Assembly: GCA_035455205.1 (NCBI GenBank)
Contig: DATIFM010000024.1
Span: 5,959 to 69,958 of the forward strand
Source of the DNA: Candidatus Bilamarchaeum sp.
Lineage (GTDB): Archaea; Micrarchaeota; Micrarchaeia; Anstonellales; Bilamarchaeaceae
Direction: 5' to 3'
Length of the DNA: 64,000 nt
Each line of letters opens with the position of its first letter. Position 1 is the stretch's first letter. Made by a program: the position numbers and the translations under genes. Of the stretch, positions 4,215-22,082 are shown piece after piece. Under the pieces are notes generated by a model. It saw nothing but the letters and a program-made list of their open reading frames with translations. It did not search any database and was not told the DNA's origin.

Positions 4215-4303
4215 TGATGGACCCGCTACGGATAGACGAGGAGGAAGACTGGGAAGACGAGGATTCCGAAGACGAAGAATGGGAGGAAGAAGAGGACGAG
4301 TAG
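4214..4303 (+). CDS. hyper-acidic micro-protein 3 (29 aa, MMDPLRIDEEEDWEDEDSEDEEWEEEEDE)
   Basis: ATG start overlapping the previous stop, with the same 'MDPLRIDE' N-terminus as micro-ORF 1. Followed by a T-rich tract at 4304-4314. Confidence 0.4.
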   Translation: MMDPLRIDEEEDWEDEDSEDEEWEEEEDE

Positions 4304-4367
4304 TTAATTTTTTAACCAATCTAATTCTATTTAATACGTCGAAGCAATTTGGGCTCGTAGCTCAGTC

Positions 4368-4400
4368 GCACCTTTTTAGGAAAAAGGTGCGCCCAAAAAC
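4368..4400. repeat. intron module copy a (inverted orientation)
   Basis: GCACCTTTTTAGGAAAAAGGTGCGCCCAAAAAC is the reverse complement of the GTTTTTGGGCGC-TTTTTCCTAAAAA-GCGC consensus. Confidence 0.8.
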
Positions 4401-4409
4401 TGCCTGTTT

Positions 4410-4430
4410 GCAAACCCTCGGAGGGTTTGC
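4410..4430. repeat. AACCC-loop-GGGTT hairpin (copy 1, inside the tRNA-Arg D-loop intron)
   Basis: GCAAACCCTCGGAGGGTTTGC, a perfect palindromic stem. Confidence 0.75.
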
Positions 4431-4439
4431 CGACAATCT

Positions 4440-4523
4440 GTTTTGGGGCGCCTCCCTATTGTCCGGCTTTCCGGACAATGGGGCACAAGGAGCATCTGCT
4501 CCTTGTTGTTTTCTAAAAGGCGC
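4440..4523. repeat. intron module copy b (forward, split by a 56-nt insert carrying two further hairpins)
   Basis: GTTTTGGGGCGCC at 4440-4452 and TTTTCTAAAAGGCGC at 4509-4523. The insert contains ATTGTCCGG-CTTT-CCGGACAAT (4458-4479) and ACAAGGAGC-ATCT-GCTCCTTGT (4485-4506). Confidence 0.75.
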
Positions 4524-4574
4524 GGAGCAGCTTGGATAGAGCGGCAGCCTTCTACTTTCGGGAATGGAATCCCC

Positions 4575-4603
4575 GTTTTGGGGCGCCTTTTCCCAAAAGG
4601 CGC
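4575..4603. repeat. intron module copy c (forward, in the 37/38 intron)
   Basis: GTTTTGGGGCGCCTTTTCCCAAAAGGCGC. Confidence 0.85.
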
Positions 4604-4640
4604 AAGCTGTAGGCCGGGGGTTCAAATCCCCCCGGGCCCG

Positions 4641-4675
4641 TTTTTGTCATTCGGCGAACCCTCGGAGGGTTCGCC
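4641..4675 (+). terminator. conserved tRNA 3' trailer: T-run plus GGCGAACCC-TCGGA-GGGTTCGCC hairpin
   Basis: TTTTTGTCATTCGGCGAACCCTCGGAGGGTTCGCC lies directly after the discriminator base. A near-identical trailer follows the Arg-CCT tRNA at 19815-19849 on the minus strand. Confidence 0.5.
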
Positions 4676-10312: not shown

Positions 10313-11488
10313 ATGATAAAACTTGAGCTGGACCGGAAAAAGCGAACTCTCTCGGTGAAGGAGCCGTCCGACGTCTCCTCGCTGCAGAACGGCTTTTACG
10401 GCCAGATGAAAAAAGGGGTAATCTCGCTCTATCCGGAAGAAGCCCTCTATGTCATGGATATCCGGAACGGGAAAACCTACGATTCCTCGGGAAACGAGTA
10501 CCAGTTCAACGAGGTCGCCTCGCTTTTCCTGCGGAACAAAAAGCTCCTCGCCCGATATCTCACGTACAAGGACTATCGCGACAAGGGTCTCATCCCAAGG
10601 CCGATGAGCGAAGCCGAGGGAAATTACGGCCGCAGCGTCAGCGTCAAGTACCAAAGCTCGGACTTCAGCCTCGACTCGTATTCCTTCCAGGGGCTGTTCT
10701 TCCCGAACGACCTCATCACGCTCGTGGATGACGAGCGCTCGGGCAAGGAGCTTTACGAGCGGTTCTGGATAGGCCAGTTCGGCACGTACAAGGCGGCGCA
10801 CCGCGGAAAGCTTTCAAAGCTGGACATTTTCGAGACTATCTTCCTCCTCAAGCACGGCGACCTGCACCTCAAGGGGAACAGCCTCGCCGACGTCGAGAAG
10901 AAGGCGCACAAGCGGATAAAGTTCTTCGGCGACATGTACCTGGTTTACGAGGACTGGCGCAAGCGCGGATACGTGGTCAAGACCGGCTTCAAGTTCGGGA
11001 CGCACTTCAGGATATACCTCCCCGGGGCCTCCCCGGTCCGGAGCGAGGACGAGTGGATGCACTCGAAGCACGTCATACACGTTTTCCCGAGGAAGCACAA
11101 GCTGATAATTTCCGAGTGGGCCCGGGCTATACGCGTCGCTCATAGCGTGAAAAAGACGTTTATCCTCGCGATACCCGGCAAGAAGACTGCAATCCAAATC
11201 AACCCGAAAAAGCCGCGCCTGGATTTCCTGCTCTACCACCGCAAGAAGGGAGGGATAGAGACCCCGAAGGAAGGCGCGCCACAATACCTGATGTACTCGC
11301 TCACCGAGGATGAGTACATCGGCGGCGAAGAGCTCGCCGGCGCGCTCGCGGAGTGCGAGCATTTCGGGCTGGAAATGCTCATGGCGATTTCAGACCGCGA
11401 GAGCAGCGTCACCTATTACGTGATAAAGGCGATAGACCTGCCCGGAAGCGAATACGAATATTACGAAATCGAATGGGTGCAACCGTAG
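10313..11488 (+). CDS. endA: tRNA-splicing endonuclease, single-chain three-unit type
   Basis: 391 aa, about twice a homotetrameric EndA.
- N-terminal EndA_N-like unit ('ALYVMD', 'YLTYKDYRDKGLIPRP').
- Central full catalytic unit ('YEDWRKRGYVVKTGFKFGTHFRIY', 'HSKHVIHV', 'AHSVKKTFILAI', giving the Tyr/His/Lys triad).
- Extra C-terminal structural unit. Confidence 0.85.
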   Translation: MIKLELDRKKRTLSVKEPSDVSSLQNGFYGQMKKGVISLYPEEALYVMDIRNGKTYDSSGNEYQFNEVASLFLRNKKLLARYLTYKDYRDKGLIPRPMSEAEGNYGRSVSVKYQSSDFSLDSYSFQGLFFPNDLITLVDDERSGKELYERFWIGQFGTYKAAHRGKLSKLDIFETIFLLKHGDLHLKGNSLADVEKKAHKRIKFFGDMYLVYEDWRKRGYVVKTGFKFGTHFRIYLPGASPVRSEDEWMHSKHVIHVFPRKHKLIISEWARAIRVAHSVKKTFILAIPGKKTAIQINPKKPRLDFLLYHRKKGGIETPKEGAPQYLMYSLTEDEYIGGEELAGALAECEHFGLEMLMAISDRESSVTYYVIKAIDLPGSEYEYYEIEWVQP

Positions 11489-19735: not shown

Positions 19736-19814
19736 ACTCGTTCATTTGCCTAAAAATGTTTTTAAACGTGTCTAGAATTGGTAAAGTAACTTACTTTTCA
19801 GTTATTGGCTGTTT

Positions 19815-19835
19815 GCGAACCCCCGGAGGGTTCGC
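19815..19835. repeat. AACCC-loop-GGGTT hairpin (copy 3, in the 3' trailer of tRNA-Arg-CCT)
   Basis: GCGAACCCCCGGAGGGTTCGC. Confidence 0.7.
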
Positions 19836-19849
19836 CGAATGAACAAAAA

Positions 19850-19975
19850 CGGGCCAGGTGAGATTTGAACTCACGACCTTCACCTTCCGCCTTTTGGGAA
19901 AAGGCGGCCCAAAACTGCCTCTCCATTTCCCGAAAATAGGACGGTGCCGCTCTATCCAAGCTGAGCTACAGGCCC
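19850..19975 (-). tRNA. tRNA-Arg (anticodon CCT) with one ~50-nt intron at 37/38
   Basis: Reverse complement reads GGGCCTGTAGCTCAGCTTGGATAGAGCGGCACCGTCCTA-[intron]-AGGTGAAGGTCGTGAGTTCAAATCTCACCTGGCCCG. One U-U mismatch in the acceptor stem and one in the anticodon stem. Confidence 0.8.
19887..19915. repeat. intron module copy d (forward relative to its minus-strand tRNA)
   Basis: The minus strand reads GTTTTGGGCCGCCTTTTCCCAAAAGGCGG. Confidence 0.85.
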
Positions 19976-21656: not shown

Positions 21657-21811
21657 GATTGGTTCAGGCCGCCAAGTCTTTTAAATTGTTTATCGGCAAA
21701 TCAATTCGATTGGGCCTGTAGCTCAGCTAGGTTAGAGCGACGGTCTTATATGACACGATCTAATACAGTCATACTAGACTGAGTGCCTATGAAAGCCGTA
21801 GGTCCGGAGTT

Positions 21812-21840
21812 GCGCCTTTTCAAAAAAGGCGCCCCAAAAC
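21812..21840. repeat. intron module copy e (inverted orientation)
   Basis: GCGCCTTTTCAAAAAAGGCGCCCCAAAAC. Confidence 0.8.
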
Positions 21841-21848
21841 AGGCTGTT

Positions 21849-21870
21849 GAAAAACCCTTTCGGGTTTTTC
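21849..21870. repeat. AACCC-loop-GGGTT hairpin (copy 6, inside a tRNA T-loop intron)
   Basis: GAAAAACCCTTTCGGGTTTTTC. Confidence 0.7.
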
Positions 21871-21915
21871 GGTGAAAACCATTTTGCGAGCGAAGCGAGC
21901 AAAATTAGCAGGCCG

Positions 21916-21944
21916 GTTTTTGGGCGCTTTTTCCTAAAAAGCGC
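21916..21944. repeat. intron module copy f (forward)
   Basis: GTTTTTGGGCGCTTTTTCCTAAAAAGCGC. Confidence 0.85.
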
Positions 21945-22082
21945 ATCGGAATTCAAAATGGACCTCCTGTCTTTTTTTGAATACAGGATGACCATGCGGC
22001 TCTCCGCAGGCCCAATCTATTGCCCTGTGCCAGCCCTGGCCCTGCCTCACGTGTTAATAACAATGCCTGCCAGATTCGGACT

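Follow-up and report, generated by a model that had tools for sequence, protein, structure and literature searches.

Hairpin modules at the ends of tRNA introns in Candidatus Bilamarchaeum: a probable building block of a genus-specific bulge-helix-bulge intron family

Introduction

We describe here a short hairpin module that recurs in the tRNA introns of Candidatus Bilamarchaeum sp., a Micrarchaeum-like archaeon of the DPANN group, taking as starting point a stretch of 64,000 nt (the window; assembly GCA_035455205.1, contig DATIFM010000024.1, positions 5,959-69,958 of the forward strand), whose own coordinates are used unless another contig is named, and extending to the whole assembly (1.39 Mb, 82% complete) and to related genomes. 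The window holds three tRNA genes with six introns, four of which carry the module, together with a gene for a three-unit (epsilon2-type) tRNA splicing endonuclease. The module is, we believe, probably the terminal building block of a genus-specific family of tRNA introns of the bulge-helix-bulge (BHB) kind that are spliced by protein.

Two archaeal systems form the immediate background. Families of transposed tRNA introns have been described in Thermoproteales (Fujishima et al., 2010, Mol Biol Evol 27:2233, as summarised in PMC4090602 and PMC3239211), and in ARMAN-2 (Candidatus Micrarchaeum acidiphilum), according to PMC3239211, 56% of the tRNA genes are disrupted, one of them by two T-loop introns, and the epsilon2 enzyme cuts strict as well as relaxed BHB motifs. 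A 2026 census of introns in Asgard archaea found no general route by which introns arrive and stressed that the route is open. Our literature search found no description of a module of the present kind in Micrarchaeota.

tRNA genes and introns of the window

Default detection proved insufficient for these genes: ARAGORN without intron mode called no tRNA in the window and missed the unspliced Arg-TCT gene, and the sole tRNA match in an Rfam search of the window was Arg-CCT. The exons were therefore set manually and verified by in-silico splicing, which gave the following genes and composite or canonical introns.

4351..4640, + strand: tRNA-Arg(TCT) gene; exons 4351-4365, 4531-4554 and 4605-4640; the spliced 75-nt product is an intron-less tRNA-Arg(tct) with a normal cloverleaf (ARAGORN)
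4366..4530, + strand: D-loop (15/16) composite intron of Arg-TCT, 165 nt; folded in context, it has a predicted 4-bp central helix (4360-4363/4525-4528) with 3-nt bulges on either side
4555..4604, + strand: canonical (37/38) intron of Arg-TCT, 50 nt; its 5' end (4555-4564) complements the centre of module copy c
19850..19975, - strand: tRNA-Arg(CCT) gene; 51-nt 37/38 intron at 19886-19936; Rfam tRNA match of 41.8 bits, called by ARAGORN with a 37/38 intron
21712..22014, + strand: tRNA-Ile(TAT) gene with three introns; exons 21712-21750, 21794-21809, 21952-21957 and 22001-22014; after splicing, the 75-nt product has a perfect cloverleaf in ARAGORN, tRNA-Ile(tat)
21810..21951, + strand: T-arm (53/54) composite intron of Ile-TAT, 142 nt; the minimum free energy (MFE) fold has a central helix (21804-21807/21946-21949), a 3-nt bulge, and copies e and f in an extended duplex

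Removing the introns in silico restores a canonical cloverleaf in Arg-TCT and Ile-TAT, Arg-CCT is called with its 37/38 intron, and the D-loop of spliced Arg-TCT is identical to that of its paralogue Arg-CCT. The six introns lie at 15/16 and 37/38 of Arg-TCT, at 37/38 of Arg-CCT, and at 37/38, 53/54 and 59/60 of Ile-TAT, where two of the three fall in the T-arm/loop.

The module and its six copies

About 30 nt long, the module consists of a G-T4-GG tail followed by a hairpin, made up of a 5-bp GC stem, T4, a YCY loop, A4 and the closing stem, and its orientation is set by the loop, which is asymmetric. A first-pass annotation of the window had listed six copies, and a check of the sequence found every one of them.

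4368..4400, - strand: copy a, inverted module; hairpin 4368-4390, tail 4391-4400; begins 2 nt past the 5' splice site; covariance model R1, E=4e-6
4440..4523, + strand: copy b, forward module split by an insert into 4440-4452 and 4509-4523; ends 7 nt ahead of the 3' splice site; identified by inspection of the sequence
4575..4603, + strand: copy c, forward module; ends 1 nt ahead of the 3' splice site; R1 E=1e-10, exact consensus match
19887..19915, - strand: copy d, forward relative to its tRNA; ends 1 nt ahead of the 3' splice site; R1 E=2e-11, consensus match
21812..21840, - strand: copy e, inverted module; begins 2 nt past the 5' splice site; R1 E=2e-8, consensus match
21916..21944, + strand: copy f, forward module; ends 7 nt ahead of the 3' splice site; R1 E=2e-6, consensus match

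Allowing up to three mismatches, a 29-nt consensus matches copies c, d, e and f and has no match in 100 dinucleotide shuffles of the window. The covariance model R1 also detects copy a, whose T/A tract is longer than in the other copies, and gives a, c, d, e and f E-values between 1e-10 and 4e-6 per genome; the split form seen in copy b recurs on contig 7 and in relatives. Both long introns have the composite layout that the annotation had proposed (inverted module, AACCC-type hairpin, spacer, forward module), and the two alternative folds that it had ascribed to the module both exist, with calculated energies of -11.4 kcal/mol for the local hairpin and -6.8 kcal/mol for the tail-loop stem. 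Its heading, that all tRNA introns of the window share the module, goes too far: "all" is wrong because two of the three tRNA-Ile introns, at 37/38 (21751-21793, 43 nt) and 59/60 (21958-22000, 43 nt), carry none.

Pairing of the outer stem was examined in two reciprocal ways. A structural scan of the assembly, asking for a 5-bp arm, at least T4, a short loop, at least A4 and a closing arm, returned about 36 hairpins, nearly every one of them preceded by G-T4 without this having been demanded. A stem-blind scan, in which the tail and the T/A tracts were demanded and the stem left free, returned 26 sites; since all five outer pairs form in 23 of these, with at least nine different arm sequences, the outer stem truly covaries. 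An alignment of 24 sequences has double changes in four of nine pairs, with Watson-Crick pairs in all cells, but its members were selected for pairing and only the stem-blind scan counts as a test of covariation.

Distribution in the genome and the genus

Against the genome, R1 gives 39 matches at E<=1e-3, of which 38 are counted as real; the other, inside a ksgA-like open reading frame (ORF), looks like chance and was set aside. Introns of 24 of the approximately 44 tRNA genes hold 29 of the 38 copies (76%), and as these genes total 6.8 kb, or 0.49% of the assembly, the module is enriched there about 150-fold; two further copies lie in a tRNA leader or trailer and seven in other spacers. The module is neither a randomly scattered repeat nor restricted to introns. 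Scattering through intergenic DNA unrelated to tRNAs, which the annotation had named as the pattern that would undo its case, is not what the genome displays, and the restriction to tRNA introns that it proposed to check by a covariance search describes the 29 intronic copies and not the other nine.

Such a short palindromic unit, present in many copies and in either orientation, is found not only here (38 copies) but in other species of the genus (1-46 copies each): 20 of the 24 congeneric species carry it, against two of 16 genomes from other families of the order, and it is genus-specific within the searched sample. In one relative (G023), followed locus by locus, approximately 19 of 25 copies lie inside tRNA introns.

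Placement at splice sites and predicted folds

In 16 canonical introns of the genome, 1-5 nt separate the 5' splice site from the start of an inverted hairpin, and 0-5 nt separate the end of a forward hairpin from the 3' splice site. One geometry is shared by the window's two non-canonical introns: the inverted hairpin follows the 5' splice site at a distance of 2 nt, and the forward hairpin is followed by 7 nt up to the 3' splice site, these being one base, the 4-nt strand that enters the central helix and two bases of the bulge. Both introns are predicted to form a 3-4-3 BHB, in which the 4-bp central helix listed above is flanked by 3-nt bulges that contain the splice sites, and which continues into a long h' helix. 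In the MFE folds this helix is provided by the inverted and forward modules, paired as one long duplex above the central helix in the place of h' in the canonical hBHBh' motif, so that the splice junctions coincide, as far as predicted folds can tell, with module-defined helices, as the annotation had required of its own proposal.

Whole pre-tRNA MFE folds misfold the canonical introns and Arg-CCT, and folds of the arm only were used in their place. The first 10-15 nt of the short canonical introns are complementary to the T4-YCY-A4 centre of the module, and in the 37/38 intron of Arg-TCT two folds are isoenergetic (-24.8 and -24.7 kcal/mol), the second of them having the geometry of a 3-4-3 BHB whose central helix is imperfect. 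Since bulges throw a MAFFT alignment out of register and make column-wise counts impossible, the helix of intron 5' end and module centre was assessed by duplex folding of each sequence with shuffled controls, in 21 introns from many species and isotypes. The cognate duplex of 5' end and centre has a mean of -9.7 kcal/mol, against -3.4 with shuffled 5' ends and -1.1 with the middle of the intron, and 59 of 62 loop bases are paired with the intron 5' end. At the third loop position C is always matched by G, and never by A, T is matched by A (six introns) or G (two), and the lone ACT loop goes with AGT. It follows from this covariation that the "loop" of the module would not be a loop in one functional fold. 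This pairing, absent from the folds that the annotation listed, would matter more as a competitor of the local hairpin than the tail-loop stem, and the covariation is, on these duplex models, the strongest argument for a module that serves in splicing and is not just carried along. The annotation's alternative, a recognition scaffold for the endonuclease, may stand as a structural role and not as a sequence-specific one.

The candidate enzyme is encoded in the window.

10313..11488, + strand: three-unit (epsilon2-type) tRNA splicing endonuclease, 391 aa; full-length match to PDB 4fz2 (ARMAN-2 EndA), E=1.9e-130; Pfam PF01974 and PF02778

Judged by this EndA homologue, the genome appears to encode an endonuclease suited to non-canonical motifs. 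A second EndA-like protein of 165 aa (contig 16; L032:1291-1785) matches PF01974 with 37.5 bits and has its closest counterpart in the alpha4 enzyme of M. jannaschii (1a79).

Related introns at different tRNA genes and positions

Likeness between the introns extends well past the module. The 53/54 intron of tRNA-Ile and, on contig 9, the 37/38 intron of tRNA-Gly(GCC) share 85% identity over 117 nt, and the 165-nt D-loop intron of Arg-TCT aligns end to end (73% over 161 columns) with the 37/38 intron, likewise of 165 nt, of a class-II tRNA gene (tRNA-Ser) on contig 7. The latter two have the same predicted fold, their alignment takes in the 56-nt insert, with compensatory changes in its hairpins, and they differ in that their central hairpin, which resembles repetitive extragenic palindromic (REP) elements, is flipped from one to the other. 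Related introns occupy positions 15/16, 37/38 and 53/54, and these homologies show, in line with the annotation, one intron family at different tRNA genes and positions.

Duplication of the host genes does not explain this likeness, the hosts being of different isotypes, with the exception of copies c and d: their Arg genes are paralogous, with 82% identity over 110 nt (exon 2, intron and exon 3) and similar trailers. Here a reading by vertical descent and tRNA gene duplication alone, without movement between genes, draws on this paralogy, with its similar downstream flanks, and on the retention of the canonical intron in orthologues; it is contradicted for copies a, b, e and f by the Ile 53/54-Gly 37/38 and Arg 15/16-Ser 37/38 pairs, in which isotype and position both differ, and by the presence of different intron families at the same D-loop site of orthologues. 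As an account of the whole family we regard it as highly improbable. Transposition of introns, as the annotation had suggested, agrees with the same two pairs and does not apply to c and d, which stem from duplication of an Arg gene.

Orthologous loci could be compared through tRNA-Arg(TCT), upstream of which one or two short ORFs of extremely acidic (D/E-rich) composition, present in most species of the genus, serve as synteny anchor (window 4215-4305; L034-L062). At the D-loop site of the syntenic orthologues two species are empty, and the filled sites hold a 31-nt minimal hairpin, introns of about 50 nt (one of them of another hairpin family), an intron of about 85 nt with the same inverted module and neither the REP-like hairpin nor the 56-nt insert, further introns of about 95 nt, and, in this genome, the intron of 165 nt. 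Given these varied states, intron content at a single site turns over quickly. The canonical intron of the same orthologues nearly always retains the forward module, with compensated changes in its arms, and the last 6-7 nt of the D-loop intron, which pair with the exon, are conserved among them.

A second family of hairpin introns, with T4-GC...GC-A4 around a T4-CGC...GCG-A4 core, is found at the D-loop 15/16 site of several tRNAs (L034, L048, L054, L056, L079 and L082; G000:C23:4037-4081) and replaces the module-type intron in the orthologous tRNA-Arg(TCT) of some species. Insertion with duplication of a target site was considered, since the flanks of the Ile 53/54 intron resemble an imperfect 7-nt direct repeat, and was rejected as a general model. 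In every species the D-loop introns of Arg, like the T-loop intron of tRNA-Pro in a relative, have a 3' end that complements the upstream exon and does not copy it.

Nested and accompanying palindromic elements

The composite introns contain palindromic elements other than the module.

4453..4508, + strand: nested 56-nt two-hairpin element, between the GC arm and the T-run of copy b
4407..4433, unstranded: central AACCC-type hairpin of the Arg D-loop intron, a member of a genome-wide REP-like family
21849..21870, unstranded: central AACCC-type hairpin of the Ile 53/54 intron, from the family search

Considered at one point as unique sequence, an idea ruled out by its diverged homologue on contig 7 and by others in relatives, the 56-nt insert is a separate repeated element present in 9 of 40 genus genomes. 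Within tRNA introns it always sits where the GC arm of a forward or inverted module meets the T-run, some orthologous introns have it while others lack it, and it occurs in tRNA leaders as well. Separate identity, fixed junction and presence or absence among orthologues bear out the annotation's claim of nested insertion. In relative G018 the two-hairpin element lies in frame within the genes for V-ATPase subunit I and NAC-alpha (L099:1501-1554 and L108:1501-1552), where it would add about 18 residues, including APG[AV]PLSGTPDNR, and resembles Rickettsia palindromic elements (RPE).

The AACCC hairpin family has 101 perfect-stem copies in the genome, 13-15 of them in tRNA genes and at least 86 outside, the latter typically just past the T-run behind genes. 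Behind each of the window's two Arg tRNA genes stands a T-run, and past it a near-identical AACCC-type hairpin (4651-4675 and 19813-19838). In the introns described here, small palindromic elements of at least three kinds form a mosaic.

Module copies outside tRNA introns

In all extra-intronic cases examined, the hairpin of the module adjoins a functional unit and its tail is directed into the spacer. An inverted module stands directly at the 3' end of RNase P RNA in this genome (G000:C29:59919-60296, L088), an arrangement kept with covarying arms in at least seven of 24 congeners, and another lies 83 nt past the Rfam match to the signal recognition particle (SRP) RNA, right after a 9-nt repeat of the SRP RNA 3' end. 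A composite cassette starts 6 nt after tRNA-Pro(GGG) (G000:C20:45090-45232), and a similar cassette is found within the T-loop of the orthologous tRNA-Pro(GGG) of G023 (L080). A forward module ends 1-3 nt ahead of the 5' end of tRNA-Ser in three species (G000:C28:23841-23871; L085; L101). The remaining extra-intronic copies follow stop codons or lie just ahead of ribosome-binding sites and have runs of T5-T6; the same T5-T6 is seen in the trailer copies (RNase P RNA, SRP RNA, tRNA-Pro), against mostly T4 in the intron copies, an archaeal oligo-T terminator being a run of at least five T right behind the mature 3' end of a gene. The placement of the extra-intronic copies agrees with insertion of a hairpin-ended cassette as one unit, and equally with hairpins of 3' ends or leaders that have been borrowed by introns.

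Some details of these loci may be recorded in their own right. Extra hairpins lower the score of the RNase P RNA to 44 bits (gathering score 84), and one of them resembles the first hairpin of the 56-nt insert. The SRP RNA match (G000:C1:9423-9796, L093) reaches 70 bits, below the gathering score, and is followed by 82 nt ending in the 9-nt repeat and then by the inverted module; this arrangement could reflect an insertion or an intron close to the 3' end of the SRP RNA. In one of the three species the tRNA-Ser leader module is split by the two-hairpin element. Upstream of tRNA-Leu, an AT-rich variant of the module precedes an 8-nt copy of the tRNA 5' end and a hairpin (G000:C28:42748-42841, L097), which could be a remnant duplication or an unrecognised leader structure. 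A candidate C/D-box small RNA beside an intergenic copy (contig 8, approximately 97,190-97,225) was dropped, its boxes being too close together for confidence.

These copies bear on two further explanations. The first of them would have composite introns arise by fusion of the trailer and leader of genes formerly or currently split, with the inverted module as a stable-RNA 3'-end or terminator hairpin and the forward module as a leader element. Agreeing with it are the inverted modules behind RNase P RNA (with their covarying stems in the congeners), behind tRNA-Pro and near the SRP RNA end, the forward module ahead of tRNA-Ser, and the REP-like hairpin of the composite introns, which is of the same kind as that after the T-run behind both Arg tRNA genes. 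No separate half-tRNA genes were seen, however, nor is a clear TATA-like box visible within the composite introns, and the single-module introns and intron-less orthologues fit insertion or loss of a cassette equally well; fusion strikes us as improbable.

The second concerns likeness to bacterial elements. REP elements, bacterial interspersed mosaic elements (BIME) and RPE are short, imperfect, non-autonomous palindromes that occur in many copies in spacers, RPE also in frame inside genes. The module shares with them its length, copy number and imperfect palindromy, and differs in being concentrated in tRNA introns at a fixed distance from splice sites, residence mainly in extragenic spacers being a feature of the AACCC hairpin family alone. 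The module might nonetheless be a generic small palindromic repeat or terminator-like hairpin, similar to REP, RPE or miniature inverted-repeat transposable elements, that resides in dispensable sequence and is tolerated by introns without any part in splicing. Copies after stop codons, in 5' leaders, and at the RNase P and SRP RNA loci favour that view, as do palindromes with Watson-Crick pairs only in both orientations, the mostly intergenic AACCC hairpin (86 of 101 copies), and the two-hairpin element in frame inside ORFs of a relative. Opposed to it are the 76% of copies in 0.49% of the genome, the fixed distance between module and splice site, homology that spans whole introns beyond the module, and the covariation of the intron 5' end with the module loop, which a passenger repeat would not impose. 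We consider it unlikely.

Discussion

The reading that we think probable, namely that the module forms the ends of a genus-specific family of protein-spliced BHB tRNA introns, may be put as follows. The basic unit would be a hairpin-ended cassette, consisting of an inverted module, often a REP-like hairpin in the middle, and a forward module, whose hairpins abut the exons and whose G-T4-GG tails point inward. In long introns the inverted and forward copies would pair and so build the helix on the intron side (h'), immediately above the 4-bp central helix, and the epsilon2 endonuclease would cut at the two 3-nt bulges flanking the latter; in short canonical introns, where only the forward copy is intact, its T4-YCY-A4 centre and the intron 5' end would form the same helix in competition with the local hairpin. 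We infer that the paired form is the substrate of splicing, and that copying takes place at the level of DNA: whole cassettes would be copied between tRNA genes and among positions 15/16, 37/38 and 53/54, acquiring further small palindromic elements on the way, and the module would be part of a wider population of small palindromic repeats that probably spread as DNA.

Several observations weigh against this reading. The splice sites of the window are predicted ones, taken from restoration of the cloverleaf and from predicted structure. Forcing the local hairpins costs only 1.7 kcal/mol in the Arg D-loop intron and 4.7 kcal/mol in the Ile T-arm intron, so that by calculation they and the extended pairing are nearly isoenergetic, and in several composite introns the GC arms of the two modules differ, which favours local hairpins over pairing in trans; with energy gaps this small and arms that differ, both conformers, local hairpins and inverted/forward duplex, are plausible on present models. 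In the modelled canonical introns the central helix is imperfect, with three of four pairs in Arg-TCT and fewer in Arg-CCT, and the predicted motif a relaxed one. Nine of the 38 module copies lie outside introns, in leaders, trailers and spacers. The near-exclusive Watson-Crick pairing of the stems would fit copying at the DNA level at least as well as selection at the RNA level. As to a mobilising enzyme, the 82%-complete genome has no match to a Y1/RAYT transposase (PF01797) or to TnpB (PF07282), the former absence also setting the module apart from REP and BIME.

Of known systems, the transposed introns of Thermoproteales are the closest precedent, sharing with the present case, as summarised in the sources cited above, similar introns across isoacceptors and at different tRNA positions. 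They differ in host and enzyme, the introns described here belonging to Micrarchaeota (DPANN) with an epsilon2 endonuclease, and in the features that mark the present family, namely a defined hairpin module of about 30 nt in inverted pairs at intron ends, mosaic introns, copies outside tRNA genes, and a connection with extragenic palindromic repeats. With ARMAN-2 (PMC3239211, PMC3488258, PMC12397907) the likeness extends to the enzyme itself, whose full-length homologue lies in the window, and to many intron-bearing tRNA genes with introns at various positions, a tRNA with two T-loop introns, and relaxed BHB motifs; the account in PMC3239211, as far as it goes, describes neither a sequence module common to the ARMAN-2 introns nor any relation between them and intergenic repeats. 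Split and permuted archaeal tRNA genes (Nanoarchaeum, Caldivirga; cited in PMC3239211 and PMC4033280) resemble the composite introns in that inverted complementary flanks unite tRNA pieces and form a BHB, whereas here both flanks lie within one gene and no separate half genes were found.

A more far-reaching proposal, which we offer tentatively and rate as possible rather than likely, is that the cassette of inverted module, spacer and forward module, with its hairpin ends, represents a mobile DNA element of the non-autonomous kind. The hairpins at its ends would pre-form the intron-side helix, so that landing in a tRNA gene could yield a spliceable intron; beside RNase P RNA, SRP RNA and tRNA genes, these ends would act as hairpins of a 3' end or a leader. 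If this is true, the cassette would be the first identified donor element for the gain of archaeal tRNA introns.

Thermoproteales have so far been the sole accepted case of intron copying between tRNA genes, and the genus studied here would add a second and much more legible one, with a defined hairpin of about 30 nt, a clear rule of position, and orthologous sites that range from empty to 165 nt. The structural role predicted for the module may be tested with an epsilon2 enzyme that has already been crystallised, and the sister copies of the module outside tRNA genes point to a source of these introns at the level of DNA.

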